From a virus: a stretch of 64,000 nucleotides of DNA. The stretch covers positions 5,915-69,914 of the IMG/VR virus record IMGVR_UViG_3300035670_012166; one strand, 5' to 3'. Below the pieces are notes generated by a model. It ran no database searches. It was not told the DNA's origin and saw only the letters and a program-made list of their open reading frames with translations. Shown here piece by piece: positions 22,949 to 47,005 of this stretch. The translations under genes were made by a program, and so were the position numbers. Within the stretch, counting starts at the first letter, position 1, and every line of letters starts with the position of its first letter.

Positions 22949-23476
22949 TTAAAACCAAGTTTGATTTGAGGGTTTATTTCCAAAAAGGATAGGATCTTGT
23001 TTTTTACTAGAAGCTTGATAATAACCTTCACCACTTTTAAAATGTTGAAAGCCTTGACCTTTTTCTCTTGATGCCATACTTTGAGGCTCTCTGTTATTGT
23101 TTTCTTGTTGAGATCCTCTAAGTTGTTCTTCCAAAGTAGTATTTTCTGGATTCTCATGATAAGGAGAATGTCTACGTGCTTCAATAGATGCAGATTGAGG
23201 AGAAACAATAAATTGACCATTATTGTCCATATTCATTCTGTGAGGACGATCTACTAGTAAATTCCAAATTTCTTTTTGTTGCTCTTGATTCATTTCATAA
23301 TATTCATCAAGAGTTTTACCCATTTTATCTAGAATGCCAGTTAGTTCATCATATAAACCTGCAGGTTTATTATCAACATCCTGTATGTCATCAATTTCAG
23401 AATAATTGTCTTCAGAATCTTCTGGTGACCAATTAATTCCACCACCTAATTGAGCAAGAATTTGTTTATACCACAT
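22949..23476 (-). CDS. Hypothetical head-cluster protein with MWY leader
   Basis: 175-aa ORF starting MWYKQILAQ. Confidence 0.6.
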   Translation of the reverse strand: MWYKQILAQLGGGINWSPEDSEDNYSEIDDIQDVDNKPAGLYDELTGILDKMGKTLDEYYEMNQEQQKEIWNLLVDRPHRMNMDNNGQFIVSPQSASIEARRHSPYHENPENTTLEEQLRGSQQENNNREPQSMASREKGQGFQHFKSGEGYYQASSKKQDPILFGNKPSNQTWF

Positions 23477-25121
23477 CGTCGTATTCTTCTCTTTTAGATT
23501 CTAAAACATAATCTAAGCCAAGTTCATCTGCAAATTTCTTCAAATCTTCATCAGAAAATTGATGTCCAAAACTATCTTCATCTTCCTCGCCTAATAAGGT
23601 TTCGATATTGACTTTATGTTTGTCATTTTTTCTTCTATCTTCAAGTTGTTCATCTTTAGGAACATCAACAACATTTTCTTTTCTTGAGGAATCTAAAATT
23701 TCTTCTTTAGTTAATTCTTTTTTAGAAGCAGTGATGTTTTTATCTAATTGATGAATAATAGAATCTTTTGGCTCATCTTTATCTTTATTTAATTCATCTC
23801 TGTAATTGATAGGATCTTCATCAGTTTCATTTAATTGTTCAGAATAAGATTCTTCCATTTCACCACGATGAGTATAAAGTTCTTTTTTATCTAATTGATT
23901 TTCTCTTACTTCATCAGTATCAGATTCTTTGTTATTAAGTCTTCTAAGTAAATCTTCAAGATAAGACATACCTTTTTGACCTTCTCTTGGAAGTTGTGAA
24001 TCAATTGTTTTAGAAGAATCTGTTTGTGCTTGTTTAGGTCTCATAACAGGTTTATCACCTTGTTGATGACCATATTGTGCTTGTTTAGAATCAGATAATT
24101 GTTTTTCTCTAGAATCTTCGTAATTTTGTTTACCACGAACTTTATTAGCACCACGATCTGAATTTTCAAATCTAGCTTCATATCCAACTTCACCATCTGT
24201 AAGTTTTTTGGATCTTTCGCCTTCTTTTAATTCAAGTGCATTAGCTTCATTATCAGGATGTTTATGTACATCTAATCTTGCCATAACTTCATCATGAGAT
24301 TGGAATGCAACTTTCAACCAATCTTGATATGCACAAGTTACATGACCTTCTTTATCTACTCTGGAATCAATGCAGTTTTCTCTACATTTTGAAATTTCCA
24401 TAGGAATTGGAGCTTTATAACCTTGGAATTTACCTTTAGGACATAGTAAAAAAGGTTCATTCATTTGAGTAGAAAGAGTTGTATATGCCACTCTTCTATT
24501 TTCTTTTGGGGTAATTTCTGAATACCAATTATGAATAAAATTGGCTACTTTCAATGTAGTTTTTTTGTTATCAGCAAGAATAATTTCTCTAGCTGAATTA
24601 ACTTTTGATAATTTTTCAGATGTATTTGCAAATTGTTTTAATTTGTCTAATGCATTAATTGATTCGATTTGCCAATATCCTGATGATTTTTCTTCAGTTT
24701 TATAAGCTACTCTTTCAAACTTTGCTGCAGAATTATTTTTATCAAAATAATTTTGTAAAGCCATATAGGCATATCTTAATGTATTTCTTTCTTCTGCTAA
24801 TCTGATATTATTTAATGTTTTATGTGCTTCATGAAGTTTTGAGTGACAATCATCTTTAGGTAGTGCCATAATCTTAACTACATTGTCAAGACCACCCATA
24901 TTTTTGAAAGCAGAAATAATTGGATCATCACCAAAATCATCCATACTTAAAACGTGAAATGGAGAAGAATGTGGCATAGAATCACCATCAAAATTTGAAA
25001 GTGTATCTTGTAACATTCCTAGTAAGCCATCTCCACCAATTTTAGGATGGCTTAAAATTTTTTCTATTTTTTCAGGATCGTGTGTCTTGTAGGTTGATTT
25101 TATTTTGTATCCTTTTTCCAT
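23466..25121 (-). CDS. Hypothetical acidic head-cluster protein with E-x-Q-L repeats and a Cys cluster
   Basis: 551-aa ORF; C-P-K...C...C...C; repeated EKQL/ENQL/DEQL. Confidence 0.6.
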   Translation of the reverse strand: MEKGYKIKSTYKTHDPEKIEKILSHPKIGGDGLLGMLQDTLSNFDGDSMPHSSPFHVLSMDDFGDDPIISAFKNMGGLDNVVKIMALPKDDCHSKLHEAHKTLNNIRLAEERNTLRYAYMALQNYFDKNNSAAKFERVAYKTEEKSSGYWQIESINALDKLKQFANTSEKLSKVNSAREIILADNKKTTLKVANFIHNWYSEITPKENRRVAYTTLSTQMNEPFLLCPKGKFQGYKAPIPMEISKCRENCIDSRVDKEGHVTCAYQDWLKVAFQSHDEVMARLDVHKHPDNEANALELKEGERSKKLTDGEVGYEARFENSDRGANKVRGKQNYEDSREKQLSDSKQAQYGHQQGDKPVMRPKQAQTDSSKTIDSQLPREGQKGMSYLEDLLRRLNNKESDTDEVRENQLDKKELYTHRGEMEESYSEQLNETDEDPINYRDELNKDKDEPKDSIIHQLDKNITASKKELTKEEILDSSRKENVVDVPKDEQLEDRRKNDKHKVNIETLLGEEDEDSFGHQFSDEDLKKFADELGLDYVLESKREEYDDVV

Positions 25122-25123
25122 AG

Positions 25124-25990
25124 TTATTTACCCAATCCTAAATTTGATAATTCTTCGTTATCAAAGCCTCTATCTTTTAATGCAGCTTTGATTTGTTTTA
25201 GTTCTTCAGACACGCCTTTTTTGTCAGCAGCATCTTTGAAATCCCCTTGTTTTGTTGTTTTAGAATAATCTTGAAGATCCATTAAAAAACAAGCTCTCAT
25301 AATTAATTCAGGGGTGGATCTTTTTAAGAAATCTGGTTTCTTATCATAATCAATAGCTGCAGTTTTGATTGAATTTTCAGAAACTCCAGCTTCTTTTTCT
25401 TTAGCAGGTTTATCTTGTTCTAGTTTTTTGTTATAATCTCTTACAATATCGATGGCTCTTTCAATTGTTTCTTTATTCCAATATTTGAGTTTAGAGATGT
25501 ATCTAACAATGTCATTTTTTTCAACACCGTGATCGAGCAATTTACCCACTTTACCCATCAAAACACGGAATGGATTGCCTCTAGTCTTTTTTTTCTTTTT
25601 AACTTGTGCTACTTTTGAATTGTTGTACACGTTCTTAGCCTCTTGTAAATAAGTTGATTCAATCTTATTTGCTATATCTGTATAGCTAGGATCCAATTTT
25701 TTAGTAATTGGATCTTTAGTTCTTGTTCTGCCATCATTTGACATTAATAAGGCTTTAGATAATTTATATAAATCTTGCCTTAAATTACTATCTTGTACTC
25801 TGTCAGCAATTATTACAACTTCATTTGATAATTCTGTATAGTTTAAAGAATTTGATTGTAATTTTTTAAGTAATTGTCTCAATTCATCTTTTGTGACACC
25901 TTCAACTTCATTACCATTAAGGGGAATATTGTTTATCCCATTGGCAGGATTAGAAGCAAGAGGTGGTTCTGATTGAGATAATTTTTTCAT
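25124..25990 (-). CDS. Hypothetical head-cluster protein
   Basis: 288-aa ORF in operon. Confidence 0.6.
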   Translation of the reverse strand: MKKLSQSEPPLASNPANGINNIPLNGNEVEGVTKDELRQLLKKLQSNSLNYTELSNEVVIIADRVQDSNLRQDLYKLSKALLMSNDGRTRTKDPITKKLDPSYTDIANKIESTYLQEAKNVYNNSKVAQVKKKKKTRGNPFRVLMGKVGKLLDHGVEKNDIVRYISKLKYWNKETIERAIDIVRDYNKKLEQDKPAKEKEAGVSENSIKTAAIDYDKKPDFLKRSTPELIMRACFLMDLQDYSKTTKQGDFKDAADKKGVSEELKQIKAALKDRGFDNEELSNLGLGK

Positions 25991-26805
25991 TAGTCAATAT
26001 CATCAAAATTTAAATCAATGCTATTATAAATTTCATTAATTGTTTTAGCTCTTGATTGTGCTTTGTTGTTAAAATCTTCTTGTGCTGATTTCTTGATTGC
26101 AAGTCTTTCAGTTCTGATTTTTTCTTGATTAGCAATTCTTCTTGATTCACGATCGTCCAGAGCAGATGGATCAATCATTCCAAATGTCGAATTGAATTCA
26201 TTATCAGCTGAAGTTCTTAGAATGCTATGTGCTCTGGAGGAAACTACAGAAGATTGTCTAAGACCTTGAAGTTTCTTTTCTTCCCAGGTTTGATGTCTAG
26301 ATGCTTTAGCTTCTCTGGATTTTTGTTGTTCAACGATAGATTGCTCACTTGAACTTGCTTGAGAATTTAAGAATTCTTCTGAAATAGCAATCATATCTGG
26401 ATTGAATATAGATGCAGAACGTGAAAGCATTGCGTTCATATATTCATCGGCAGAAAATGCTTTTAAACCACTAGTTGTTGTTCTGGCATTATCACCTTCG
26501 TCATAGCTACTACCAGCACGTCTGATAGCACCAAAATCTTGAGATAAAATTCTTTCTTCTAAGCTTGATTCTCTTAAATCTTGATAAGATGAAGCTCCTT
26601 GAATTTTTTCCCAAGATTTGCTTAATGTATTAGCTTCTTTTGTGAATCCAATATTTTGTTTAGAAATAGTTTGTCTATTAGCTGTAGAATTTCTTCTTAA
26701 CTCCGCATAAGGGTCTTCGTCGATTTCTACTTGAGCACCAATAAATTTTTTCTCTAAAAAAGATGGAATATTTTCAGTTTCTGAAACTTTTTTAAATCTG
26801 CTCAT
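25990..26805 (-). CDS. Hypothetical head-cluster protein
   Basis: 271-aa ORF; AGGA RBS. Confidence 0.6.
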   Translation of the reverse strand: MSRFKKVSETENIPSFLEKKFIGAQVEIDEDPYAELRRNSTANRQTISKQNIGFTKEANTLSKSWEKIQGASSYQDLRESSLEERILSQDFGAIRRAGSSYDEGDNARTTTSGLKAFSADEYMNAMLSRSASIFNPDMIAISEEFLNSQASSSEQSIVEQQKSREAKASRHQTWEEKKLQGLRQSSVVSSRAHSILRTSADNEFNSTFGMIDPSALDDRESRRIANQEKIRTERLAIKKSAQEDFNNKAQSRAKTINEIYNSIDLNFDDID

Positions 26806-26836
26806 TATTAAATTTCCTATTATCGTTCTTCAAGAA

Positions 26837-26862
26837 TGTCCCAGGGCTTATGCCCTGGGACA
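26837..26862. terminator. GC-rich perfect hairpin (terminator or stabiliser)
   Basis: TGTCCCAGGGC-ttat-GCCCTGGGACA. Confidence 0.6.
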
Positions 26863-26888
26863 ATTTCTCTTGAGGATTTAGATTAGTT

Positions 26889-27956
26889 CTACTTGTCGTA
26901 CTCTTTTGTGAATAATTTGTCAATCCACTCTTGATCGCCATATCCAAGTTCATTTTTCCAATAATCAATGAGTCTTGAATAATCTGCGTCTGAAAGAGTT
27001 GCGGTTTTGATCATTGAAGATGCAGCTGCAATCTTGACATTTGATTCTAATTCAGAAGCTAAAACGCTTTTGATTTCTACTAAATTATCTGCAGGAGCTG
27101 GAGTTGTTTCACCTAATCTTGCATTGATATATTCGATTGGGAAACCTTCAGCCAATGCTTTAGCTGCAAATGCTTTTCTAGCAGCATTGGAGAATGCTTT
27201 AGCTTCTTTCATCTCTGTATCATCAGATGCATTGCAAGCTTCGCACCCTTTACCTGCACATTTGCTGCATTCTTTGTCCATTGAAGCATCTTTCTCTTCT
27301 TTAGCTGCTTCAACAACTTTTTCAACTAATGCTTCTCTGTAAGCTTTTCTTTGAGCAAGCTTGACATTTGCTTCTTCTTGAGCCTTTACTTGGCGCTCAA
27401 TCTTACCTGCAAGTCTTACTCTTCTTTCATGACGAGCTGCAAGGATAGCATTCTTGAGATCTTCATCTCCAGATGCAATTGCTGCTTCTACAGCTTCAGC
27501 TGATAATTGTGATGGGTGATTGAAATGAAATGCCTTCTTTTCAGACTTATTCTTAGGACCTTTTCTCTTCATAGGACCTTTTTCATCACATTCGCAAGGA
27601 TCGCAATCACACTCTGGGCATTTTTCTGACTTGTCATCATCGTCATCAGATTCTGCTTTCTTGCCTTTGCCATTCTCTTCCATCCACTTTTTCAAACCTT
27701 CTGGAAGACCCTTTTTAGCCCATCTAGAACCAGCTTCATGCTCCATATCATCATCCATAGAGCCTGCTTCTGCTTGCATTCTATCTACTTCTTCATCGCC
27801 AATAGCATCAATAAGAGCTTTGAGGCCTTTATTCTCTTTAGGCTCTTTTGCTTCAGCTAATCTTTGGTTAAAGTTGTCCCAATCAATTCCTTGGAAAACC
27901 AAGTCAGAATCAAGAGGATCTTCTTGAAATCTGTTTGGGAAAATTCTATCTGCCAT
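26889..27956 (-). CDS. Hypothetical head-cluster protein (Cys-rich acidic linkers, coiled coil)
   Basis: 355 aa; CPECDCDPCEC; AGGAG RBS; higher-GC codon usage. Confidence 0.6.
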   Translation of the reverse strand: MADRIFPNRFQEDPLDSDLVFQGIDWDNFNQRLAEAKEPKENKGLKALIDAIGDEEVDRMQAEAGSMDDDMEHEAGSRWAKKGLPEGLKKWMEENGKGKKAESDDDDDKSEKCPECDCDPCECDEKGPMKRKGPKNKSEKKAFHFNHPSQLSAEAVEAAIASGDEDLKNAILAARHERRVRLAGKIERQVKAQEEANVKLAQRKAYREALVEKVVEAAKEEKDASMDKECSKCAGKGCEACNASDDTEMKEAKAFSNAARKAFAAKALAEGFPIEYINARLGETTPAPADNLVEIKSVLASELESNVKIAAASSMIKTATLSDADYSRLIDYWKNELGYGDQEWIDKLFTKEYDK

Positions 27957-27995
27957 AATTAATTTTTCTCCTCAAGAAAAAATACATTAAGAAAT

Positions 27996-28020
27996 TTCTA
28001 AATTTAATGCTTAAAATCCT
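27996..28020 (-). promoter_or_regulatory. Putative late promoter AGG-N18-AGAA
   Basis: AGG attttaagcattaaattt AGAA. Confidence 0.6.
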
Positions 28021-28033
28021 TTAATGCATCCAT

Positions 28034-28414
28034 TTATGTTTTTTTACTTAAAATAAGTTTTTTGCCCTTCAAGAGCAATTTGTCACCAATCTTAATTCCA
28101 AGCTTATCAAACAATCCCTTATTTGCTTCTACAACAAATACAATATCATTTGATTTTGGAGATACTGATTTTGGATCATCAGCCTCCATATCTTTAAAAT
28201 CAACAATTTCCGAATCTTTATTTAGAAATGCAAGTGTTAAAGCAAATGAAACATTTTTATTCCAAAAAGAATAATTATCAGGATAATCAAAAACAAAAAA
28301 TGCTACTTCGTAATCATCTAATGGCTCTGCATCCATCAATCCTTTTACTCTAAGCTTGTCATTATCAGCAATAAATCTAACATCAAATTCATCACGGAAT
28401 TTAGATGCAGTGAG
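28034..28414 (-). CDS. DUF192 domain; the frame continues upstream to the in-frame TGA of the preceding ORF (readthrough or disrupted gene)
   Basis: IADNDKLRVKGLM...FFVF....SFWNKNV.F.L..AF....VVEAN.G; no ATG/GTG/TTG between 28414 and 28340. Confidence 0.7.
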   Translation of the reverse strand, partial: LTASKFRDEFDVRFIADNDKLRVKGLMDAEPLDDYEVAFFVFDYPDNYSFWNKNVSFALTLAFLNKDSEIVDFKDMEADDPKSVSPKSNDIVFVVEANKGLFDKLGIKIGDKLLLKGKKLILSKKT

Positions 28415-28906
28415 TCAAGAACCAACTTTCTTAAATTTATTTGAAGAGGCTTTTACACTTCTTGCTTCTTCCAAATCAAATCTGTCTTTTGTTCTTTGTT
28501 TTCTAAATTCATTTACATTATCAGTTGAAAGATAATGATCTCTCAATGCAAGTTTAGCTCTGTCAGTAAGCTCAACTGATCTACCATAACCTGTGAGAAG
28601 TCCAGCAGTTTTTAATGCTAATAAATCATTGTCAGAAATATCACTAGGAACTCCACATATTTTTCCATCTTTATTTAATGCTAAATGACTTGCAGCTGTG
28701 ACTAAGGCATCTGTATTTGCATCAATAGTCTTAAGCATTTCTAAATATCTATCACTTAATTTAGCTGCTTCAATTTTCTTAGGAGCTTGTGAAACACCCA
28801 AAAGTTGAATTTGAATATCAGAAAGTCCTAAACCCTCCATTGAAGGTCCGTCAAATAATTCTGCGTGTAAATCTAATGAATGAACTGGTTTAATTGGTAT
28901 TGGCAT
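28415..28906 (-). CDS. Hypothetical protein, N-terminal partner of the DUF192 frame
   Basis: 163 aa ending in TGA at 28415-28417; AGGA RBS. Confidence 0.6.
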   Translation of the reverse strand: MPIPIKPVHSLDLHAELFDGPSMEGLGLSDIQIQLLGVSQAPKKIEAAKLSDRYLEMLKTIDANTDALVTAASHLALNKDGKICGVPSDISDNDLLALKTAGLLTGYGRSVELTDRAKLALRDHYLSTDNVNEFRKQRTKDRFDLEEARSVKASSNKFKKVGS

Positions 28907-28917
28907 TGTAATTTTCC

Positions 28918-29367
28918 TTATCTGTATGGTAATCTATTTTTCCAAGCATTTCCTTCGTCAACATTCTTTTGATAAGTTTCATCCCAAGAAAACTTATCAT
29001 CAATATCTTCACCTTTAGAAATAGCCATTGATGGGCTTGAAGCTGGATTGCCTGGATCTACATATGCAGGACCAGGAACATTGTCGGGACCATGTAATTG
29101 TCCTTCTATATTTTGTCCATCATCCTCTCCACCTAAATCACGATATTCTGGCACTCTTTTTCTAGGATTGATTTTTTGTCGCCAGTAATCATTATTTTCA
29201 TATTCTTCTTCTAGTTCTTCATAAGGAACTAAAGAAACATTAGGAACTTGAGTGACTGATGTTTGCGGATAATATTGAGCAATCTTTTCAAATAATTTAT
29301 CTGATTCCTTAACAAATCCACTATTATCTAAAATAGAACACACCTTAATTATGGAATTAAGTTTCAT
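28918..29367 (-). CDS. Hypothetical protein with LDxxG-type leader
   Basis: MKLNSIIKVCSILDNSGFVKESDKLFEKIAQ. Confidence 0.6.
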   Translation of the reverse strand: MKLNSIIKVCSILDNSGFVKESDKLFEKIAQYYPQTSVTQVPNVSLVPYEELEEEYENNDYWRQKINPRKRVPEYRDLGGEDDGQNIEGQLHGPDNVPGPAYVDPGNPASSPSMAISKGEDIDDKFSWDETYQKNVDEGNAWKNRLPYR

Positions 29368-30356
29368 AATGAATGTCCGCCAATTCCATAAAATGTTGAT
29401 CCATCGTAAGCTTCTTCAACACCTTTATCTTCTTTTTGATTAGAATCAATGTAATCATAATAAGAAGTAAATGTTCTATTAGGATGCATTTGTTTTTCTA
29501 GGGATGAATTAGGATCTATTTCTTTCAAAGATTGTGGTTTTGGAGCAATATCTTCAGGAGCATAAACATTAGATTTTCCATCAGGATTACCTTCTGTCAA
29601 TACTGTGTCTTTTAATAAATATTCTTGAAATCCATCATAATCAGGAGTGTTGACATTCATTAAGTCTTGTAAATAAGTGTCAAATTCTTCTCCTTCTGTC
29701 AATACTGGAGTTTTGCCCAAAGAAGGTTTGGTAAATTGAGCTTTATCAAATTCATTTCTTTCTTCAGGATATTCTTTAGTAAGTCTATTTCTTCTAGCAA
29801 CTTCATAATCTTCTGCAATACGATTAATAGAAGATTCATTAATAGCAAAATGTAATCTAGAGGGTTTATCTGGATCTTTGTAATCTTCTCTAGGATATTT
29901 AAATTCTTTATTATATTTGTGTCTATTTTCTAAAGATTGCTCCATTGTCATAATATGTTCTGGTTTAGGAGCATAATGAGTTTTGATATATTCTGGGCTG
30001 TTTTTAATTAAATCACTGACCGCATTTTCTAAAGATTGTTTGTAATTATGAAGTTGTGCTCTGAATTTAGCTCTCATTCTCTCTTCAGGAGTAAGTTCAT
30101 AAGCAATCAAATCTTCGTAATTTTTATGTTGAGGAGAAAGTCTTGTTTCTATATTTACATCTCTTGTATCTGGCTCGATGTGAGTTCTTCTTAATAACTT
30201 ATCAAAACTTGCATCTTCATCAACATATAAATTTATATCATTACCGCCTCTATTGGATCCACCTCTACCAATAGGACTACCACCTGGTTGATAAGGAGAG
30301 CCATTACCTCCGCCTCCAACGCCACCAAATTGAGCAGTACGAATATTCTTAGACAT
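29364..30356 (-). CDS. Hypothetical head-cluster protein
   Basis: 330 aa; MSKNIRTAQ followed by a Gly-rich stretch. Confidence 0.6.
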   Translation of the reverse strand: MSKNIRTAQFGGVGGGGNGSPYQPGGSPIGRGGSNRGGNDINLYVDEDASFDKLLRRTHIEPDTRDVNIETRLSPQHKNYEDLIAYELTPEERMRAKFRAQLHNYKQSLENAVSDLIKNSPEYIKTHYAPKPEHIMTMEQSLENRHKYNKEFKYPREDYKDPDKPSRLHFAINESSINRIAEDYEVARRNRLTKEYPEERNEFDKAQFTKPSLGKTPVLTEGEEFDTYLQDLMNVNTPDYDGFQEYLLKDTVLTEGNPDGKSNVYAPEDIAPKPQSLKEIDPNSSLEKQMHPNRTFTSYYDYIDSNQKEDKGVEEAYDGSTFYGIGGHSL

Positions 30357-30365
30357 AATGATTTG

Positions 30366-30390
30366 TTCTCAAGAAAATATTTTTTTACCT
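30366..30390 (-). promoter_or_regulatory. Putative late promoter AGG-N18-AGAA
   Basis: AGG taaaaaaatattttcttg AGAA. Confidence 0.6.
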
Positions 30391-32502
30391 TTACCTTCTA
30401 TTCAAATTAACCATTTTTGCTCTAGGTAATCTCACAGCAATTTTAGATGTTAAACATTCATATGAAACAGCAGCAACAGCATCACAAATATCATCTTTGT
30501 AGCCAGACAAAGCTTCGATATAATATCTTTTGCCTTTCCATTTTTTTTGCAAGAATAAAAACTGAATTTTAGCTTCTTGTATTTCATTTAATGGTTGCAA
30601 GGTATTGTTCAAGTCATAGTAAGATCCACCTGAAAGATCATAAATATCTATCCTGTCATCTCTTATCAATTGAGCAAGTTCTGTGTAAATTTTTTCTTTA
30701 TATTCTTTGTTGAATTGTCTTTCAACAATTGGAATCCTCATAGATTGCAATTTAATTAAAGAGGATTGTGAATTCCATTGATCAATACTTACTTGTTTGA
30801 ATTTAAATCTCTGATGAAGATCAATTACATAATCTTCGATATCTTTTTCTTGAACTGGTTGATTTTTAGTTTTTGGATTCCAAAAATGAATGTGATCAAT
30901 TACCACTCTTTTCAATGGTTTAAAGTCAGGGCCAATTTCACCATACATATTTTCTGTATGAGCTATAACAAGAGCGTAATAATCAGAAGTTCTTGCTGGA
31001 TCTAAATGGCAGAAATATTCAAAATGACCATCAGCAAATTCTTTTCTTTTTACCATAGACATTGATGTAAACATTCTCTCAATGTCTTCTGCAGAGAAGA
31101 TAGGATCTGAAGAAGAAGCACCAAATTCAGCTCCATATTGCATTTGAAATTCTTGAGGGTCTTTTTTCTTTTGTCCATCAAGCCAATCTTTATCAATATT
31201 AGGATTTGTAAGCCAAGTGGGAAGTCTCATAACAAGAGTGGTAGGATCTTCTTGTCTGTTTTCATGCAAATCATAAAGTAATCCAATAGGTCCTTTAGGG
31301 TTGGAAAGCATCATCATCTTTCCATCTTTACCAAATGTTGCAAGAGATGGTTTTAATTCATCATATAAGGCATAATCCACACCACTATCTGGATTATCAC
31401 CAGCCATAGCAGCTACCTCGTCCATAATTATTGACCAACAAGTTAAACCAACAAGGCCAGACGCATTACTAGAACCACACCTTAATACTAAAGATCCAGC
31501 AAATAAATTAATACCTTGATCAGATCTTCTTACATTTTCTTCTCTATCGTGTTCTGTGTAAAACCTCATTTCAAGTTCTGTATCTTTGCCAATATAAGGA
31601 GCAAAAAATGGAGAGGCTAAAACTGTTTGCTTGATTTTAGAGAAGATTGCCTTTTTAGCCTGTTCTTCATTACGAGCAACATTCAATAGAACAATCTCAT
31701 CGAATTCCATCAAGCCATATCTTGCTTGAGGATGACCCATAGAAATTAATCTGTAAAGTTCATATAGAGCCATAGCAGAAACAAGAAATGATTTTCCAGA
31801 ACGTCTACCTAGTACTAAAACAAGTTCTTCAAACTTAAATCTTTGCTTTGATTTTTGTTCTACTTGCATTCTGAGTTTAGGATCAAACTCTTCAGAATAA
31901 AGTAAATCATTTTCTGATTGATATCCATCAATTATAGGTCTAGCTTCTAAATTTTCTACTTGTCTTTCAGCATCAGGGTTAGTAGCTTCTTGTCTTGCAT
32001 ATTCATATCTAGCTTTTCTTACATCATTGTTAAGTCTAGAACATTGCAAACAAGGAGAATTAACTACATTGAAAATTGTTTTGAAATTTCTCTCTTCTTT
32101 TCTAGCTTTCAAAAAATCATTTTCATTTTTTTGAATATAGTTCCAAACACAACCTTGGCAATCAACTTCATTTTCTGTATTGTCAATTACAAGATTGGTA
32201 TTTCCTTCTTGTCCCATATAAAAACATTTTAAGATAAGTTTTTGCCAAGGATAAGGCTTAAGATTACAGAAAAAAGGGTGTTCAATAAAAGTGATAATAT
32301 CTACAATTTGATCAGGATTAAATCTATCTTTTGGTGGTTTTACAGGTGGAGCAACTTCTTGTCTAGTGGCAGGAGCAATTTCTTCATCAAAATCTCTGGC
32401 GTAAATTGTATCCTTGAAAAGCTCTTTTACTGAGTTTGCTTGTTGTAGTAATTGACTTTTTAACTCATTTGAACTTTTATTGACTTGAACTGGTTTTCTC
32501 AT
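30391..32502 (-). CDS. Terminase large subunit
   Basis: PYPWQ, Walker A GRRSGKS, Walker B IIMDE, LSNP, RNase H-like HLDPA...DDICDA. Confidence 0.9.
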   Translation of the reverse strand: MRKPVQVNKSSNELKSQLLQQANSVKELFKDTIYARDFDEEIAPATRQEVAPPVKPPKDRFNPDQIVDIITFIEHPFFCNLKPYPWQKLILKCFYMGQEGNTNLVIDNTENEVDCQGCVWNYIQKNENDFLKARKEERNFKTIFNVVNSPCLQCSRLNNDVRKARYEYARQEATNPDAERQVENLEARPIIDGYQSENDLLYSEEFDPKLRMQVEQKSKQRFKFEELVLVLGRRSGKSFLVSAMALYELYRLISMGHPQARYGLMEFDEIVLLNVARNEEQAKKAIFSKIKQTVLASPFFAPYIGKDTELEMRFYTEHDREENVRRSDQGINLFAGSLVLRCGSSNASGLVGLTCWSIIMDEVAAMAGDNPDSGVDYALYDELKPSLATFGKDGKMMMLSNPKGPIGLLYDLHENRQEDPTTLVMRLPTWLTNPNIDKDWLDGQKKKDPQEFQMQYGAEFGASSSDPIFSAEDIERMFTSMSMVKRKEFADGHFEYFCHLDPARTSDYYALVIAHTENMYGEIGPDFKPLKRVVIDHIHFWNPKTKNQPVQEKDIEDYVIDLHQRFKFKQVSIDQWNSQSSLIKLQSMRIPIVERQFNKEYKEKIYTELAQLIRDDRIDIYDLSGGSYYDLNNTLQPLNEIQEAKIQFLFLQKKWKGKRYYIEALSGYKDDICDAVAAVSYECLTSKIAVRLPRAKMVNLNRR

Positions 32503-33182: not shown

Positions 33183-33200
33183 TTTTATAGTTATACAAAA

Positions 33201-33232
33201 TAAACAAGCCGCATATTATTGCGGCTTGTTTA
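33201..33232 (-). terminator. Terminator
   Basis: TAAACAAGCCGCA/TGCGGCTTGTTTA. Confidence 0.75.
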
Positions 33233-33248
33233 TTATAAAATAGAATAA

Positions 33249-33962: not shown

Positions 33963-34022
33963 TTTCTCTTCTCCCCTTAGATTTTTTTGATCCCTACTAA
34001 CGAAAGGGCTTAATTAAATAAT

Positions 34023-34060: not shown

Positions 34061-34107
34061 TGTGGAACATATAAATATAATACAAAAAACTTTAAAATAT
34101 ATTCCTA

Positions 34108-34671
34108 CTAAAATAAGAAGTCATCACCAAGATGTTTTTTTAACTTTTCAAGAGCTTTAGATAATCTTTTACTTAGAGCTCCTTGTGTAATATTTAATAT
34201 TTTTGCAGCTTCTTTTTGATCTATTCCATCAAAAAAATACATTTGAATTATTTGTTTATGATTATCATCTAATTGATTTATTGCATCGTGTAAACATATA
34301 ACATTTTCAATTTTATTAAATGGATCGTAGCTTTGCTCAGTAAATTTTATTTCTTCAGAATATTCTTCTTTATTCGAATATTTATCACTTACTAATCTAA
34401 ATAAAGTGATGTCTATTCTTGTTGATAAAAAATAAGAAAAATATGAGAGTTTAGGATCATATTGGTCAATTAATTTCTTGAGTGCAAAGATGCAGTCTGA
34501 TAATAGATCTTCTTTATGAGATGCAAAAGATAAATCTTTCGCCACAATTCTTTTTATTGATGATAAAAAAAGTGGCTTATAAAACTCATATAAATCAAAC
34601 AAAGCCTCTTCGTTACCAGCTTTATATTTGTGTATTAATTTGTCAATTTCTTGATATTGATCTGAAGACAT
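34108..34671 (-). CDS. Sigma-70 family RNA polymerase sigma factor (regions 2 and 4)
   Basis: YKAGNEEALFDL...DLL.....L...YDP..FSYF; LDDNHKQII.MYFFDG..QKEAAKIL.ITQGALSKRL. Confidence 0.8.
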   Translation of the reverse strand: MSSDQYQEIDKLIHKYKAGNEEALFDLYEFYKPLFLSSIKRIVAKDLSFASHKEDLLSDCIFALKKLIDQYDPKLSYFSYFLSTRIDITLFRLVSDKYSNKEEYSEEIKFTEQSYDPFNKIENVICLHDAINQLDDNHKQIIQMYFFDGIDQKEAAKILNITQGALSKRLSKALEKLKKHLGDDFLF

Positions 34672-35677: not shown

Positions 35678-35679
35678 AA

Positions 35680-36723: not shown

Positions 36724-36791
36724 TTTCAGCTTTTCAATCTTTCCTAACAATTGAAATTTATGAAGATGATCGGATTTATTTAACTTAAATT

Positions 36792-37787: not shown

Positions 37788-37856
37788 ATAATAATCTTAC
37801 CAGTAGATGTCTCTCAAATCAAGGGTCAATAGGGATAAATGTAAAATATAAACTGT

Positions 37857-40571
37857 ATGTGGTACTCAAGAATTATCGAATCAGCAACAGCCTGGGATGT
37901 CCTTTCAACTAAAGAAGTTGCTTGGAGTGGCTCTTTTTCTAGAACTTTCAAAGATTTTTCGTTTTATGGCACAAACAATTTGCCTACTATGACAGCTATG
38001 CTTAAATTAATAGCTGAGATAGAAAAAGGTAAAAACAATGATTCTATAATTGATAAATATTTTGAAGAAGCAAAACAAAGTTCTAGTGTTTTAGCAGACA
38101 TTGTTTATTTTGCTGGTTGTTTATCAAAATTTATTGATGCTGAAATGAAAAAACAAGGTAGTTCTGCCAATACAGATATGATGAAAGTTCTTGATTTTTT
38201 AGGCAAATTAAATAGTTTTGCAAAATCTCAAGGACAAAAGGGAAATAAATTAGGAGACACGATTCCTGACCCTGAAAAGGCTAAAGCTTATGTTAATGCT
38301 ACTCTCGGCATAGGTTTTACTACACTTAATTTATTAGTCAGAAAAGGAACAGAAATCAGTAATTCTTTAGCTTTATTTATGCTCCGTGGTGATGACAAAG
38401 CATTATTAGGAGTACCTGATTCTGAACAAAGAGATTTATTACTTGAACAATTGAAAGAACAGAAGCCTGATTTAAGAAAATTTGAAAGCTACGATGCTGC
38501 AATTACAACAATTTGGAGTGGTGAAATAAAAAATCACATACCTTTGTTGAAAGATTTTCTTCTTTCAGGAATTGATCCGCCTCAAGTATTGCATATGATT
38601 ATTCAATTACTTAATCAACCAGATATTGAACAAAAAAATGTTGTCGATATGGTAATACCTTTACCCATAACAACTTTGATTGATGTACTTGATAATTTAG
38701 AGCAGCATTCCAAATATGATCCATTTTCTTCATATTTAGCAGAAAGATTATATGGTCAAATAAGTGATTATGAACTAGATACAAATCCTTTGCTTGTTGG
38801 AAAATTAAGAAGAAGTAAAAAATTTAAAGCATTTGTAGACTCCAAAGGCGATAATTGTGAGCCTTTATATATAATAAAGGGAATTGCAAAACCTGAAGTC
38901 ATAATTAGATATTTGGAAAAAAACCCAGAAGATTTTGATAAATTTGATATCAATCTCTTAAATAGTTTAGGCGATGAAATCAAAAATAAGATTATTGCTC
39001 GTGGAACTGCAGCAAAAGCAAAAATTCAATCTGATGGTTTAGCTTTGTTAGAAAAAGCTGCACAACAAAATATAATTTCAATCACAAAAGCAACAGATAC
39101 TTCTTTCAATTATGCATATGGAAAAGGTCCAAAAAACGATTTTAAACCAGAAAATATGTCTGAAAGTGAATGGAGACAAAAAAGCAAATCAGACGAAGTT
39201 TTTGAAAAATTTTATCAATCTTATGAAGATCGTATGAAGCAAGAGGCTCCTTTTGCTGGTGTCAGTGAAGAAGACATTAAAACATATGCTGATCAAATGG
39301 TCATCATAGAATTTGGTACTTACAACTTAAAAAGTTTTTTAGCAGAAAACAACGCACCAAAAATGAAAATTGGTCCTGTTGATATGCTTGATGAAAAATG
39401 GGGTGGGCTGTTTGTGCCTAGATTTCCAACAAAAGATAGAGGTCCAATTCCAGCCATATTGATCAAAACTGATATATGGAATCAACTTTCATATCACCAA
39501 GCGTTAGCACAGAACATTGGTATGAGTGATCAGCATTATGTTGAAGCTACAAGAAGACACGAAGTTGCTCACGCATTACAATATTTACAATCTGGTGATA
39601 TAACAATGCAAGATTCTATTGCATTAAATCCTGAATTAACACCAGAAGAAGCATATATTTCAAATCCATCAGAACTTTATGCAAGAATTCACGGAGATAT
39701 TCCTTATCTTGCTAAAATATTTGATGCTCATATTGGCAACTTGATGTCAGATAGAAAAATTTATCAAGCAGCCAAAGAACAATGGATTTTAGATATTCAA
39801 GATGAATTAATTCACTTGATGTCAGGTGGTACTAATGCGACCAGATTACTTGCTGATATGGAAGCTGGAAGATTTGGAACATTCACTACTGATTCTGGTC
39901 AAACAATAAAATTAACAGACCCACTTGAAGCAATTAACAAAAAATTACAGCGTCAAAGAAATAGACTTGAGATGATTTTTCACGAAACATTTCAAATTCA
40001 GGGCAGAAGAGATTTCAGAAGAGGCTTGATCAGTAAGAAAAATCAACTCCAACAACAAATACAATCTACCCCAATTTATTCTCCAGAAAGAACACATCTT
40101 GAAGAAGAATTGAAAGATGTTGAAATCAAATTGGTAGAATCAGGAAAAATGTTAATCTTTGATGTGAAAGATGTATCTGAAGCTGTAGTTGAAGGATATA
40201 TGTCTGATTACTATTCAAAGATTGCAGAAGCTGTAGCTAATGGCTTACTTACTACAGATATTGTCAATCCAGAGGGCGAAGATAGAAGATTGGAAAATGA
40301 GCAATTAAAAGAACAAGCTAAAAAGCAAGAACCTCCAACAGCTCAAGATATTAGACAACATTCTAGATTTCAAATTCAACAAACTGAACCAATTCCAAGT
40401 GGTAGAAAAATTGATGTCATTATTCCAAGATATAAGGGACCAGGAAGACCACCAGGCAATTTTCCAGGTTTTGATGATGCAGAACAAGATGAAACACAAG
40501 TTGATCTTTCTATAGAGAGAGATGAAGATAAAACTGCTAAGGTTTATAATTTGAGAAAAAGTTTAGGTTAA
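37857..40571 (+). CDS. Large MWY-leader protein with a zincin HExxH motif (putative virion cargo)
   Basis: MWYSRIIESA; RHEVAHALQ and downstream Y..NP.ELYAR. Confidence 0.55.
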   Translation: MWYSRIIESATAWDVLSTKEVAWSGSFSRTFKDFSFYGTNNLPTMTAMLKLIAEIEKGKNNDSIIDKYFEEAKQSSSVLADIVYFAGCLSKFIDAEMKKQGSSANTDMMKVLDFLGKLNSFAKSQGQKGNKLGDTIPDPEKAKAYVNATLGIGFTTLNLLVRKGTEISNSLALFMLRGDDKALLGVPDSEQRDLLLEQLKEQKPDLRKFESYDAAITTIWSGEIKNHIPLLKDFLLSGIDPPQVLHMIIQLLNQPDIEQKNVVDMVIPLPITTLIDVLDNLEQHSKYDPFSSYLAERLYGQISDYELDTNPLLVGKLRRSKKFKAFVDSKGDNCEPLYIIKGIAKPEVIIRYLEKNPEDFDKFDINLLNSLGDEIKNKIIARGTAAKAKIQSDGLALLEKAAQQNIISITKATDTSFNYAYGKGPKNDFKPENMSESEWRQKSKSDEVFEKFYQSYEDRMKQEAPFAGVSEEDIKTYADQMVIIEFGTYNLKSFLAENNAPKMKIGPVDMLDEKWGGLFVPRFPTKDRGPIPAILIKTDIWNQLSYHQALAQNIGMSDQHYVEATRRHEVAHALQYLQSGDITMQDSIALNPELTPEEAYISNPSELYARIHGDIPYLAKIFDAHIGNLMSDRKIYQAAKEQWILDIQDELIHLMSGGTNATRLLADMEAGRFGTFTTDSGQTIKLTDPLEAINKKLQRQRNRLEMIFHETFQIQGRRDFRRGLISKKNQLQQQIQSTPIYSPERTHLEEELKDVEIKLVESGKMLIFDVKDVSEAVVEGYMSDYYSKIAEAVANGLLTTDIVNPEGEDRRLENEQLKEQAKKQEPPTAQDIRQHSRFQIQQTEPIPSGRKIDVIIPRYKGPGRPPGNFPGFDDAEQDETQVDLSIERDEDKTAKVYNLRKSLG

Positions 40572-41189
40572 GTCTATATCTTTATCTTCATCATAAAATT
40601 CCCTGTCATCCACACCATTCATTTGATAATCAATGTGGGCATCAGGGAATTTTTGTCTTATTTTACTTATTGCTTCGTCTTTGCTATAATCCTCTAGTGG
40701 TAGATTAGTGGTGAAAACAACATGATGACGAATCTCTTCTGCATCTTCTTCATCACTATATAATTCTTCCAATCCAGGAATAGATAATTGATCTGTGATT
40801 AATTTGCCTTCTTTGTCAGACCCTGCTCTTAATGCCTTAAATGACAAAGGATCCATAAAGAAGAATTTCCAAACACCATTTTCAGGAAATAATAAAATTT
40901 GTGGATAAAGCTCAAAATGTTTTCTTGTGCCTTTATGTTTATCAGCAATTTGTTCAACAGGATCTTTTGAAGGATCAAAAATAAATTTATCATCACCTAA
41001 AACTTCGACAGGATCTTTGCCTTCTTTTCTTGCTCTAGTTAATGCAAAATCAGAAAATGTTTCAGGATTCTTATATACTTGGTCAAAATCTAAATCAGAA
41101 GCGTCAATAGCTACTTTGGTAAATTTATCTGCTAGTCTAAAACATCCTAAATTATCCAAAATAGATGCTGTACGAAGAAAGTTAAACAT
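40563..41189 (-). CDS. Hypothetical protein with LDxxG-type leader
   Basis: MFNFLRTASILDNLGCFRLADKFTKVA. Confidence 0.6.
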   Translation of the reverse strand: MFNFLRTASILDNLGCFRLADKFTKVAIDASDLDFDQVYKNPETFSDFALTRARKEGKDPVEVLGDDKFIFDPSKDPVEQIADKHKGTRKHFELYPQILLFPENGVWKFFFMDPLSFKALRAGSDKEGKLITDQLSIPGLEELYSDEEDAEEIRHHVVFTTNLPLEDYSKDEAISKIRQKFPDAHIDYQMNGVDDREFYDEDKDIDLT

Positions 41190-41191
41190 AC

Positions 41192-41875
41192 TTACTTCTT
41201 TGGCATTTTGTGAGAGGCATCCTTTTTCTCATCATCTTTGAATTGAACATAAACTTCGGATGCTTTTTTTCTAATTCTGGTGAGAGCATTATCAACACAT
41301 TTTGCTGGAACATTCAATGTGTAAGAAATTTCTTTATATGATGAATTGTGTCCATACTCTACAAAAATATCTGCTTCAAGAGGTGTTAATCTATCTAAAA
41401 GCATTTCAGAATTTATTTCTAATTCTTCTCTAACAATTATATCTTCTACCAAATTAACTTCAGGTGATTCATCATAAGGATTTTTCTTATCAGGAATATA
41501 ATCTCCTAAAGAATGAAAATTACCATCATCATTCAATATGAAAGGAGCATCTAAAGAAATAGAATCATTCAACGCTGAATTCTTCATTCTTTTAGCAGAA
41601 GCGATAGCAGTGGCAAGATGTCTTTTGCAAACTAAATTAACACAAAAGTTTTTGAATGTTGTGTCTTTAGTACAATCGTAGGAATTAACTGCCTTAAATA
41701 CACCTAATCTCAATTCTTGCATAACATCTTCTTTGTCTCCACCAACAATAAAGAAGTGAGGTGCAATTTTCTTGAGATCAGGTTCTACCATCTTAAGAAG
41801 TTTCTTAAATGCTACTTCGTTACCAGCTTTTGCTTTGTTTACTAATCTTACTATCTTAATATCTTCGGTTGCCAT
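41192..41875 (-). CDS. sigH: SigH-like RNA polymerase sigma factor (start likely ATG 41875)
   Basis: GGDKEDVMQE..LGVFKAV..YD....FKNF..L...R...TAI.SA.R.K...LN..ISLD; SYKEIS..L....K.VDNALTRIRKK. Confidence 0.75.
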   Translation of the reverse strand: MATEDIKIVRLVNKAKAGNEVAFKKLLKMVEPDLKKIAPHFFIVGGDKEDVMQELRLGVFKAVNSYDCTKDTTFKNFCVNLVCKRHLATAIASAKRMKNSALNDSISLDAPFILNDDGNFHSLGDYIPDKKNPYDESPEVNLVEDIIVREELEINSEMLLDRLTPLEADIFVEYGHNSSYKEISYTLNVPAKCVDNALTRIRKKASEVYVQFKDDEKKDASHKMPKK

Positions 41876-41912
41876 CAAAACTCCCGAAGGCACAAATCAT
41901 CTAAAAATCTTC

Positions 41913-44625: not shown

Positions 44626-44627
44626 AA

Positions 44628-44945
44628 CTAAATACCTTCCTCATTCTTTATCATATCAAAAGTAATTTCCTCAGCATCCGGGTTGAATACTAAAGATAAT
44701 GGATGCTCACGATTCTTAAGAGCAACAGTAAAATTGATTAATTCTCGACCTTCCAGATACCTATCCATTTTAGTAAGATCTTTAATATCGTCTAATGACA
44801 ATGCTGCAGTATATACTCTTTCAGATTTTGTATCTTGTAACTGTAACCAAATATATTGAATAATTTTTGGGTCATCTTCAGTTCCCTCATCTTCTCGCAA
44901 TACAGCATCTAATATCTTAACTTCTCTTACTACAGATTTACTCAT
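44628..44945 (-). CDS. Hypothetical protein
   Basis: 105-aa ORF; TG-n-TAAAAT 6 nt upstream of the ATG. Confidence 0.6.
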   Translation of the reverse strand: MSKSVVREVKILDAVLREDEGTEDDPKIIQYIWLQLQDTKSERVYTAALSLDDIKDLTKMDRYLEGRELINFTVALKNREHPLSLVFNPDAEEITFDMIKNEEGI

Positions 44946-44982
44946 ACAAGGATTTTACCACAACATAAAGTAAAAGTAAATT

Positions 44983-46548
44983 ATGTGGTACAAAACTGCT
45001 CTTACTACAATCGACCCAACAGGACAAATTAATTTTCCTGATATGGGTGGGCATAAATTCAACCTAAATGATTTAAAATTTAAAGTTAATGTTAAAGATT
45101 ATATTAACACAAAAAGAGTTATAATTTTTGCTTTTATTCCTGCGATCAAAAATTCAATAGGAACACTCGAGTTTATATACGATAAAGACAAAAATTACAT
45201 TGATATTGATGGTGTATTAGTTAAAAAAATAGGAAAAATACCCCTAGAAAAATTACAACAACAACACGATGATCAAGTGCAATTAAAAACAACTGGAATT
45301 GGAATTGGAAAAAAACTTTATGAAAAGTTTTTAGAAGTTGTTCAAAACGATGAAGAATTGTCTAAAGCAGATTTTGTAAGAGGGGACGTTCATTCACAGC
45401 AAGCTTATAAAGCAAAGAATAATGCATTGGGCAAACCATTTGAAGCTAGAAGTAAATTTAATACATCTGAAAATAATCAAGCAATTAGAAATAAAATTAT
45501 TGATTTAGAAAATGAACTTTACGATCCTGATATAACTTATATTAGAAAAAATCAAATATTACAATTAATCAACACACTTACATTTGAATTAGAAAAATCT
45601 GTACCCGTTACACACGAACAGTCTATGGATATTTTAGTTCCTGCTAGTTGGTCTAAAGATGGCACTTATGTAGATAATCTTTATAATTATCCAAGTGTTG
45701 AAACAAAACATAGAATTCCTGCTAAAAGTGAAGATAGACCGAAGAGAAGACTACAAGATCCAAATCAATTAAGTTTAGATGTAGCTGCTAGTCAAAAACA
45801 TTACAAGATTGCTATAACTCAAGTTGATCCTTCTGGGCAAATTAATATGGATTTTCCAGGAATTAGACCTAAACCATTCAATATAGACAAAGATGTAGAT
45901 TTTAAAATAAAATATGATCAATTTTGGAAATCTTATACCATCACTGCTTACTTGAAAAATGGTAGAGATCTAGGACATATCTCAATGGAAGTTCCTGAAG
46001 GTATGAACACAGCAAAGATTGAGTTTGTTACCTTAAATGAATATCCAAATAGTGCAGGAACAGAGGAATGGGAAAAGCCCAAAAATCCTGAAGATAGATT
46101 AAGACCTGACTTAATGAAAGAATTAAAACAGGCTGGATATGAAGTTGATGAAAATTCCTATACTAGATTGAAATGGGGCATAGGCAAAAGACTCTACGAA
46201 GAAGCTAAAAAGTTCTTACAAAAAAATAAACCAGATGTTGAATTTGTTGAAGGAACTGTTCATAGCAGAGATGCATATAATAGCAGAAATTCAGTATTTG
46301 GATTGCCTAATTCTGCATACGATCCAGATGGAAGTACTTGGTATAGAATTCATCAAGATCATTCTCCTGAAGAACGTGAAGAATTATCAAAAAAAATCTC
46401 ATATGAATTATTTCCATCTAGATTCCAAAACTCTGGCGAATCTGAAATTCCACCTAGTATGTTTTATGTAAAGCATAAAATAAATAAATTACCAACCAAA
46501 AAGGTCAACCAAGATCAATCTGAAGGATTATTCGACGATGTGGTATAG
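44983..46548 (+). CDS. MWY-leader protein with two tandem GNAT-like modules
   Basis: Internal duplication: DP(T/S)GQIN..., GIG(IG)K.LYE, (D/E)FV.G.VHS..AY..(K/R)N...G. Confidence 0.55.
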   Translation: MWYKTALTTIDPTGQINFPDMGGHKFNLNDLKFKVNVKDYINTKRVIIFAFIPAIKNSIGTLEFIYDKDKNYIDIDGVLVKKIGKIPLEKLQQQHDDQVQLKTTGIGIGKKLYEKFLEVVQNDEELSKADFVRGDVHSQQAYKAKNNALGKPFEARSKFNTSENNQAIRNKIIDLENELYDPDITYIRKNQILQLINTLTFELEKSVPVTHEQSMDILVPASWSKDGTYVDNLYNYPSVETKHRIPAKSEDRPKRRLQDPNQLSLDVAASQKHYKIAITQVDPSGQINMDFPGIRPKPFNIDKDVDFKIKYDQFWKSYTITAYLKNGRDLGHISMEVPEGMNTAKIEFVTLNEYPNSAGTEEWEKPKNPEDRLRPDLMKELKQAGYEVDENSYTRLKWGIGKRLYEEAKKFLQKNKPDVEFVEGTVHSRDAYNSRNSVFGLPNSAYDPDGSTWYRIHQDHSPEEREELSKKISYELFPSRFQNSGESEIPPSMFYVKHKINKLPTKKVNQDQSEGLFDDVV

Positions 46549-47005
46549 ATTTGCACAAATATTTGGTATACATCCAAAAGAAAAAGAAGCATTGGAATTT
46601 TATGGTGAAACAGATGATCCTGTTAAGGCTGGTTATGTACTAAGCACTGGAAAATTTCTAGATTATTCTGAAGGTGGGTACGAGAGATCATTAGATCATA
46701 GAAACATTGAATATATTATGGATGAGCCAGAAGAATCTAAAGGAAGTAGATATTCTGATTATGTTGTTCCTTTTATGTCTTTAACTGGCGCAATTAGAGT
46801 TTCAAATTATGGTGAATGGAGTGTCGATATACATTCTCCTCCTACTCCTGAACAAATTACAGCTATAGCAAGAAATCATATAAATGGAAAAGATTTTCAT
46901 TATGATGTAGATCCTCTTGGAATTAGTGAAACATTACCAAGAGCTTCTCAGGAAGCAGTAGCTAATAAATTGAGAGAAATTAGAAGACAATTAATGGGCC
47001 AATAA
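46538..47005 (+). CDS. Hypothetical MWY-leader protein
   Basis: MWYRFAQ; AGY...G..LD.S...R..DHR.I...GAIR. Confidence 0.6.
   Translation: MWYRFAQIFGIHPKEKEALEFYGETDDPVKAGYVLSTGKFLDYSEGGYERSLDHRNIEYIMDEPEESKGSRYSDYVVPFMSLTGAIRVSNYGEWSVDIHSPPTPEQITAIARNHINGKDFHYDVDPLGISETLPRASQEAVANKLREIRRQLMGQ

Follow-up and report, generated by a model that had tools for sequence, protein, structure and literature searches.

Why should proteins that have nothing else in common begin with the same few residues? This question is raised by a 64,000-nucleotide (nt) stretch of viral DNA from IMG/VR record IMGVR_UViG_3300035670_012166 (hereafter the window), which comprises bases 5915–69914 of one 120,181-bp contig and encodes four proteins, of 175, 904, 521 and 155 amino acids (aa), that all start with Met-Trp-Tyr (MWY). 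A first-pass annotation of the window had pointed out these four open reading frames (ORFs) and had suggested, by analogy with the capsid-targeting sequence (CTS) of phage T4, that their shared start loads enzymes into the phage head for injection. We found all four genes where it had placed them, and five more on the contig outside the window, so that the count of four is right for the window and too low for the contig, which has nine. As described below, the MWY start appears to be a short N-terminal tag that is selected as a peptide and is linked by gene order and descent to the head genes; that it serves to load proteins into the prohead is our tentative interpretation.

Occurrence and distribution of the MWY start

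The sequence ATGTGGTAY, which specifies MWY, is found at four sites in the window, compared with 0.57 ± 0.84 expected from dinucleotide shuffles, and at nine sites in the whole contig, every one of which is the start of an ORF of 125–904 aa. ORF starts of the same length class make up 3.3% of all ATGs in the contig, and nine of nine would arise by chance with a probability of ∼4e-14; counted by genes, 0.08 MWY starts are expected among the 141 genes of the contig (Poisson P ∼3e-16). The regular-expression search across the genome and its relatives, which the first-pass annotation had proposed, gave the same picture: ORFs start at 128 of the 130 sites in the loci (830 kb) that surround the orthologues of a single tagged gene, and at 56 of the 64 sites in 1.1 Mb of portal loci. 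The bodies behind the tag had been described as otherwise unrelated, and this is borne out on the contig except for two paralogue pairs; the 155-aa protein is a distant paralogue of a 281-aa tagged protein encoded beyond the window. Across the clade at least 26 mutually unrelated body families carry the tag, and a relative that is 84% complete carries ten tagged ORFs together with one MENWYK variant.

The source contig is a piece of a jumbo phage genome of ∼350 kb, because completeness estimates of the IMG/VR type put contigs like it at about one-third of a genome and relatives of 300–358 kb at 84–99% complete. Freshwater metagenomes and IMG/VR contain close relatives in abundance, and the tag is used by uncultivated jumbo myophages from freshwater, a clade with genomes of ∼350 kb. 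The nearest isolate is Bacillus phage G, whose capsid is related (Table 1) and whose portal shows 28% identity; its 497-kb genome has five ATGTGGTAY sites, the same as the control, and the tag is not present in it. Loci with an ADP-ribosyltransferase (ART) protein of ≤32% identity contain three sites in ∼320 kb, none of which starts a credible tagged gene. Because phage G, with its related capsid, lacks the tag, we regard the tag as a lineage-specific system and not as an effect of base composition.

Anatomy of the tag and selection on the peptide

Averaged over the 26 body families, the consensus is M-W-Y-[KR]-[LFI]-[AS]-x, with information at positions 1–7 and background from position 8 onward. 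The first three positions are M, W and Y, as set by the search pattern itself; position 4 is Arg in 50% and Lys in 39% of families (89% together), position 5 is Leu, Phe or Ile in 60%, position 6 is Ala in 68% and Ser in 13% (81% together), and position 7 is Gln, Ala, Ile or Leu. The motif proposed earlier, MWY-(K/R)-x(1-5)-A, is therefore too loose, since the tag has seven residues with Ala or Ser fixed at position 6 in ∼80% of families. A minority form reads MWY-[S/N/Y/T]-R-x-x-x-A, and outgroup lineages tolerate one residue before the Trp (MSWY, MLWY, MTWY). What follows depends on the family and may be a GGG linker, a variable K/E/P-rich linker (the ART and 230-aa families) or directly the first strand of the domain (NUDIX). 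In an AlphaFold model of the 521-aa protein, which has a GNAT fold (see below), residues 1–24 have a predicted local distance difference test (pLDDT) score of 24–32 and are unstructured beside a confident domain; because of this, the tag is predicted to lie outside the fold. It probably forms one short amphipathic helical turn. None of the N-termini, all of which were inspected, resembles a Sec, Tat or lipoprotein signal peptide, as there is no h-region and polar or charged residues appear from positions 7–12, and among the papers searched none ties MWY to phages.

Several observations indicate that it is the peptide which is conserved. ART orthologues were compared down to 40% identity, and 40 of 42 start MWY[KR] and keep MWY[KR][LIY][AS], the two exceptions being a truncated call and a protein of 30% identity. 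Of the ten families tested, eight have their highest conservation in residues 1–8, and in the other two this segment lies within 0.01 of the top. Third codon positions are free to vary (TAT 83/TAC 29 for Tyr; A 59/T 42 at the third base of the Ala codon), and no conserved RNA motif was found upstream of the tagged genes beyond a weak purine-rich Shine-Dalgarno sequence at −12 to −9. Taken together, these patterns argue that the shared leader is under purifying selection as a peptide.

Moreover, the position of the tag in the chain seems to matter. Where tagged modules have become fused, the internal copy either is still intact or has decayed (KHYKIA, KKYAQL and KIYSSY) with loss of the Met and the Trp; the first of these decayed copies begins the second GNAT-like module of the 521-aa protein. 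No internal W-Y-[KR]-x-[AS] occurs among the contig proteins. Because the decayed internal copies in fused genes lose M and W, the function of the tag appears to require a free N-terminus, and their quick decay points to active selection there. The intact copies belong to one sub-lineage, where the ART gene runs in frame into the tagged gene that follows, of the 278-aa family, and the internal MWY is preserved (...KKKANY-MWYTRLKTAISK...). These fusions are presumably recent, and they may represent a recent loss of the stop codon, internal initiation or a polyprotein.

Linkage of the tag to the head module

The gene of the 175-aa tagged protein overlaps the gene upstream of it by 11 nt, and the portal gene follows 33 nt downstream. 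In the family of this protein (P0001), which reaches down to 14% identity, two columns alone are invariant, W2 and the Leu of T-L-E-E-Q-L. All 59 of the 59 loci of relatives have a tagged ORF no more than 2.3 kb upstream of the portal, and with one exception this ORF encodes the orthologue, a small acidic protein (MWY[KR]...GGG). In a distant relative (L140), a tagged CCA-adding enzyme is located between the small tagged gene and the portal, inside the head operon. A profile search with the P0001 family through 1.84 billion protein representatives returned 43 members, nearly all starting M(x)WY. By gene order, the 175-aa protein is best described as a core gene of the head module and not as an accessory one.

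Outgroup lineages, whose portals are ∼50% identical, have a homologue of the 175-aa protein that starts MSWY[KR]LAKDY or MSWWKFSKDY. In the complete 347-kb genome of one of them (G005) the portal-adjacent protein is the sole tagged ORF, all other MSWY, MSWW, MWY and W-Y-K/R-x-A/S sites of that genome being non-coding noise. Because of this sole occurrence in a complete outgroup genome, we consider the tag ancestral on the portal-adjacent protein, from which it would later have spread to enzymes. Synteny and phylogeny thus both tie the tag to the head module, as judged from these loci. The C-terminus of the portal itself (20555–21300) matches the DUF559 and REase_MTES_1575 (Vsr-like) nuclease domains in Pfam (2.4e-6 and 7.5e-9).

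Proteins that carry the tag

Most tagged families are without annotation; those which can be recognised are NUDIX, ART-PolyVal, PcfJ-like, J-domain and CCA-adding proteins (Table 1). The tagged proteins have one or two domains and are not multi-effector chains, and no MuF match was found in Pfam or NCBIfam. The first-pass annotation had called the 521-aa protein a GNAT, and this identity holds at the level of fold only, because Pfam gives no match, nor do phage databases. Its model (pLDDT 72) has GNAT or histone acetyltransferases as nearly all of its top 50 Foldseek matches in the PDB (probability up to 1.0, best E 1.6e-3), and a conserved G-I-G-x-x-L-Y is present, in keeping with the acetyl-CoA loop (beta4-alpha3) of this fold. 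As for the proposed zinc peptidase, the 904-aa protein does have an HExxH motif (HEVAH), which is the only feature of that kind; searches of Pfam, NCBIfam and PHROG were without match, and an atlas search gave a lead to the polyvalent-protein domain LPD23 (0.90). Searches of IMG/VR with single-sequence patterns gave no direct relatives of the 521-aa protein or of a 616-aa protein. The other untyped tagged bodies gave nothing usable in Pfam (E up to 10), NCBIfam or PHROGs, and an atlas search with the 281-aa protein was empty. The ART orthologues have an invariant L-E-T-Q-K island (residues 34–39) where their variable, K/E/P-rich linker meets the catalytic domain, and in this one family the island might serve for processing or docking.

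Gene content varies among close relatives, one of which (L166) has an extra tagged gene of 120 aa after the orthologue of the 155-aa gene, and tandem arrangement of tagged genes is common.

The predicted prohead protease and candidate cleavage sites

The gene after the portal encodes a 1383-aa polyprotein, for which the first-pass annotation had correctly given the start MYKVAK; most relatives share the longer start MYKVAKGG. Near its N-terminus lies a predicted prohead-protease domain, which is 38% identical over 158 aa to phage G gp19 and in which His126 and Ser177 are invariant in 15 relatives. The top three Foldseek matches of this domain are T4 gp21 (5jbl, E 0.014), obtained with a weak model (pLDDT 59), and a PDB sequence search of the region was empty. 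Sequence and model together suggest that the polyprotein carries a protease domain of the T4 gp21 type. The ∼1100-aa extension past this domain is rich in Ala, Asp and Ser, and may be a scaffold or core. At its C-terminus (16277–17000) there are two CxxC...CxxC zinc-ribbon-like pairs with Pro/Ala/Gly-rich linkers between.

The head cluster (12855–30356) contains 11 copies of E-x-Q-L compared with 1.75 ± 1.33 in shuffles, of which 0 of 1000 reach 11, and outside it there are six compared with 7.3 expected. Because five copies are in the protease polyprotein and one is invariant in the 175-aa protein, E-x-Q-L is a candidate site of the prohead protease or of maturation, or a candidate assembly motif. 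L/I-x-E was also considered as a cleavage motif and was rejected, as its density in head proteins is not raised.

Genome context and expression signals

Three of the four tagged genes of the window lie on the plus strand amid a long run of minus-strand genes, as the first-pass annotation had observed. A scan for sigma-70 promoters and terminators around these plus-strand cassettes was not above shuffles. A spaced motif, AGG-N18-AGAA, occurs 14 times in the contig, and seven of these copies are ≤80 nt upstream of gene starts (in the window at 16120–30400, and at genome positions 79240 and 84160), four of them those of head genes; other spacings give 1–4. One of two phage sigma-like proteins (34108–34671 and 41192–41893) may use the motif as a late promoter. 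A head-type promoter was suspected on one tagged operon and was discarded, since the AGG there belongs to a terminator stem. At many genes a TATAAT-like box is found 6–9 nt before the ATG (for example, 22916–22948 and 33183–33248), and a box so near the ATG suggests leaderless or near-leaderless transcripts. Finally, two otherwise unrelated proteins (28918–29367 and 40563–41189) have in common an N-terminal ...[SA]ILDN[SL]G... (39% over 28 aa, E 0.008), possibly a second, weaker shared N-terminus.

Table 1. Positions of the tagged genes and of related features. Plain numbers refer to the window; L numbers refer to other loci.
Feature	Position	Strand	Remarks
Major capsid protein, candidate receptor of the tag	12855–13709	−	48% identity to phage G gp27
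1383-aa polyprotein	16277–20428	−	Kept in all relatives; five E-x-Q-L motifs
Predicted prohead-protease domain, residues ∼75–220	19769–20206	−	phrog_18299 'head maturation protease', 5e-21
Portal protein with C-terminal DUF559/Vsr-like nuclease domain	20555–22915	−	
175-aa tagged acidic protein (P0001 family)	22949–23476	−	Starts MWYKQILAQ
LEEQL motif of the 175-aa protein	23120–23134	−	Instance of the E-x-Q-L of the head cluster
Tag codons 1–7 of the 175-aa protein	23456–23476	−	MWYKQIL, then GGG linker
904-aa tagged protein, no family assignment	37857–40571	+	Starts MWYSRIIESA; HEVAH at 39558–39572
521-aa tagged protein, two GNAT-fold modules	44983–46548	+	Starts MWYKTALT
Decayed internal tag copy, start of second GNAT-like module	45796–45819	+	KHYKIAIT; M and W lost, Y-K-x-A kept
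155-aa tagged protein, no function assigned	46538–47005	+	Starts MWYRFAQ; 11-nt overlap with preceding gene
Four further tagged genes of the contig	L001:8725–9102, 10714–11796, 12174–14024, 14025–15776	+	Beyond the window
Fifth further tagged gene (281-aa protein)	L002:9587–10432	−	Beyond the window
ART-PolyVal tagged body	L001:10714–11796	+	PF18760, 47.3 bits (cut-off 31.2)
NUDIX tagged body			PF00293, 1.8e-16
PcfJ-like tagged bodies			Two proteins
DnaJ J-domain tagged protein, 169 aa	L161:4319–4825		In relatives; HPD motif; Pfam 8.2e-11
CCA-adding/poly(A)-polymerase and HD-domain tagged enzyme	L140:8199–9914		Distant relative
Fusions of ART with the 278-aa family	L031:726–2624, L033:408–2306, L035:10001–11914, L040:1981 onward		

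Proposed loading into the prohead and alternative explanations

Our preferred explanation, held tentatively, is that the MWY start serves as a modular address at the N-terminus and acts as a loading signal for the assembling prohead in the manner of the T4 CTS; it is based on synteny, phylogeny, the type of cargo and the presence of the predicted protease. According to this model, the tag would dock its carrier on a component of the prohead (its core or scaffold, the polyprotein with the protease, the portal or the capsid's inner surface), the docked enzymes would become enclosed in the head, and they would be delivered with the DNA, as T4's internal proteins, along with Alt, are by way of their 10-residue CTS. 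In some lineages the tag would have been copied from the portal-adjacent protein onto ten or more accessory enzymes per genome. Docking, encapsidation and injection are steps that we infer by analogy with T4. That seven residues would suffice as a general loader for a varying complement of at least ten enzymes in each genome, all co-injected, is a stronger proposal, and we put it forward with somewhat greater reserve.

Several points weigh against such loading. Family alignments reveal no conserved cleavage site or common motif behind the tag, nothing being conserved past residue 7, and E-x-Q-L is missing from most cargo; among the other tagged proteins of the contig a single PcfJ-like protein has it. 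Removal of the leader after the Ala, as predicted in the first-pass annotation, is thus not borne out, and cargo that is loaded, if there is any, may well keep its tag. Only one of the nine tagged genes of the contig belongs to the head module; of the other eight, several form units of their own on the opposite strand. In relatives, the tagged genes show no enrichment of AGG-N18-AGAA upstream of them (11 of 145, compared with 10% of control ORFs). The J-domain protein, the CCA-adding enzyme and the NUDIX protein are equally plausible as ordinary cytoplasmic proteins, the protease was assigned on a weak model (pLDDT 59, E 0.014), and the tagged clade is known from sequences alone. Moreover, seven residues are short, as the signal of P1 DarB needs more than nine (PMC9024508).

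The main competitor, which we consider less likely, is that the tag docks its carriers elsewhere than in the capsid interior, namely on the cytoplasmic membrane, on a replication or assembly compartment, or on a hub protein of host or phage. The portal-adjacent protein would then be localised likewise, and the enzymes would act in the infection that makes them. The W-Y aromatics followed by K/R and a hydrophobic face are typical of interfacial amphipathic helices, and T4-type proheads are initiated at the cytoplasmic membrane; however, seven residues form two helical turns at most and would be a weak membrane anchor. Although most tagged genes are outside structural modules, the one protein that is tagged universally is encoded by a gene of the head module, coupled to the portal. 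The J-domain protein and the CCA-adding enzyme have obvious intracellular roles and no cleavage site follows the tag, whereas ART-PolyVal is typically assigned to proteins that are delivered together with DNA. No compartment-forming genes were seen, though none were specifically looked for.

It is improbable that the tag is a stability or turnover signal, whether a degron or a protection, read by an AAA+ protease (ClpXP-type N-motifs) or by an enzyme that modifies N-termini, so that the lifetime of potentially toxic take-over enzymes would be timed by it. Relatives encode a ClpP-like protease (G003:104600–105025, G004:294202–294627 and G005:324810–325346), as does phage G. The occurrence of such a protease in relatives would suit a degron, yet its presence in G005, where the tag has not expanded, and in phage G shows no co-variation with the tag. 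The requirement for a free N-terminus also fits, and ART and NUDIX enzymes are possibly toxic if long-lived, but the presence of the tag on a conserved head-module protein is then hard to explain. Nor would a classical N-end-rule residue be exposed, because methionine aminopeptidase does not remove a Met that precedes Trp.

Even less probable is an effect at the level of nucleic acid, in which the conserved start would be an enhancer of translation initiation or a recombination site of cassettes, and the amino acids a by-product. The tagged genes do resemble cassettes, in that they stand in tandem, come and go between relatives and fuse in frame, but homologous recombination would require more than nine fixed bases. 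Similarly, the −10-like box 6–9 nt before the ATG of many genes could be taken as a sign of a signal at the start, but highly expressed structural genes are without the tag. The amino acids are maintained although synonymous positions change, K and R replace each other at position 4, and in the outgroups an added Ser codon (MSWY) leaves W-Y-K/R-L-A in place, none of which suits selection on the bases. Least probable of all is a relic without present function, an ancestral N-terminus kept through swaps of the downstream domains: domain shuffling and fusion are indeed frequent among tagged genes, but the tag is the best or joint-best conserved segment in all ten families, down to 14–40% body identity, and internal copies decay quickly.

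Comparison with known systems

The CTS of T4 IPI, IPII, IPIII and Alt was reportedly described by Mullaney and Black in 1996. The internal proteins of T4 are diverse, and all that they and the ART Alt have in common is an N-terminal peptide of 10 residues; they are taken in with the scaffolding core and undergo trimming by gp21 (PMC3012670, PMC9026906, PMC10229621), and among T-even phages the internal proteins are so diverse that the CTS alone is conserved (PMC3012670, PMC9026906). Alt is a packaged ART, and ART-PolyVal is a domain of proteins predicted to be co-delivered with DNA (PMC5512222). The MWY tag is likewise short, N-terminal and found on unrelated, fast-evolving accessory proteins that include an ART, its carrier genes are scattered, and a gp21-type protease is predicted in the same genome; the analogy drawn in the first-pass annotation is in our judgement the right one, to which the predicted protease domain and the link to the head module can now be added. 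The differences are also clear. The MWY clade belongs to a phage G-like capsid lineage, and its tag has no demonstrated sequence relation to the T4 CTS; its cargo families are more numerous and larger (at least 26, with enzymes of up to 904 aa); the tag has no closing cleavage site of the L/I-x-E type and is also present on a conserved portal-adjacent head protein; and whereas packaging is established for T4, the MWY tag is known here from genes alone.

In phage P1, an N-terminal signal directs the large anti-defence enzyme DarB into the head and needs other small head proteins (PMC9024508). Unlike the P1 Dar proteins, which have no common consensus and need more than nine residues, the MWY carriers share one strict consensus of seven residues on many proteins. 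The ejection proteins of SPN3US and phiKZ have propeptides of 20–130 residues ending at A/S-x-E sites that were verified by mass spectrometry (PMC5694885). These are also jumbo phages with a gp21-like protease and many internal or ejected head proteins, among them the paralogues gp53 and gp54 with identical N-termini, but their propeptides are not a universal short tag. With the polyvalent proteins of Iyer et al. (2017; PMC5512222) the MWY carriers share the ART-PolyVal domain and the same presumed early delivery with DNA; in polyvalent and MuF effectors, however, the domains are chained to each other, to MuF or to the portal, whereas MWY proteins are stand-alone or two-domain and the tag would replace the covalent anchor. 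In another huge uncultivated phage, an N-terminal tag (MNRYDIALGKKPPP) whose first 12–14 residues are common to many unrelated proteins has been read as a head-loading signal, though both the sequence and the phage differ. A cellular parallel is provided by the cargo-loading peptides of encapsulins, in which unrelated enzymes attach to the inside of an HK97-fold shell through a short terminal peptide that they share; these peptides are usually C-terminal, differ in sequence and serve nanocompartments rather than virions.

Implications

Relative to the T4 CTS, P1 DarB and the SPN3US and phiKZ systems, what would be new is the sequence, the lineage, the strict seven-residue consensus, the larger number of cargo families and the origin on a head-module protein. 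If loading into the prohead is true, the MWY tag would be the second clear consensus capsid-targeting peptide after that of T4 and the first in the phage G-like jumbo lineage, where the cargo is larger and enzymatically richer, and it would also be a very short natural tag for packing foreign proteins into large capsids. The injected take-over and anti-defence effectors of uncultivated giant phages would then be readable from sequence alone, and since most tagged families have no known function, the tag therefore supplies a ready list of candidates. Even with a partner other than the capsid, a seven-residue address that is carried by 26 families and appears to derive from a head-module protein would be a clean sorting signal in a virus group for which none has been described.

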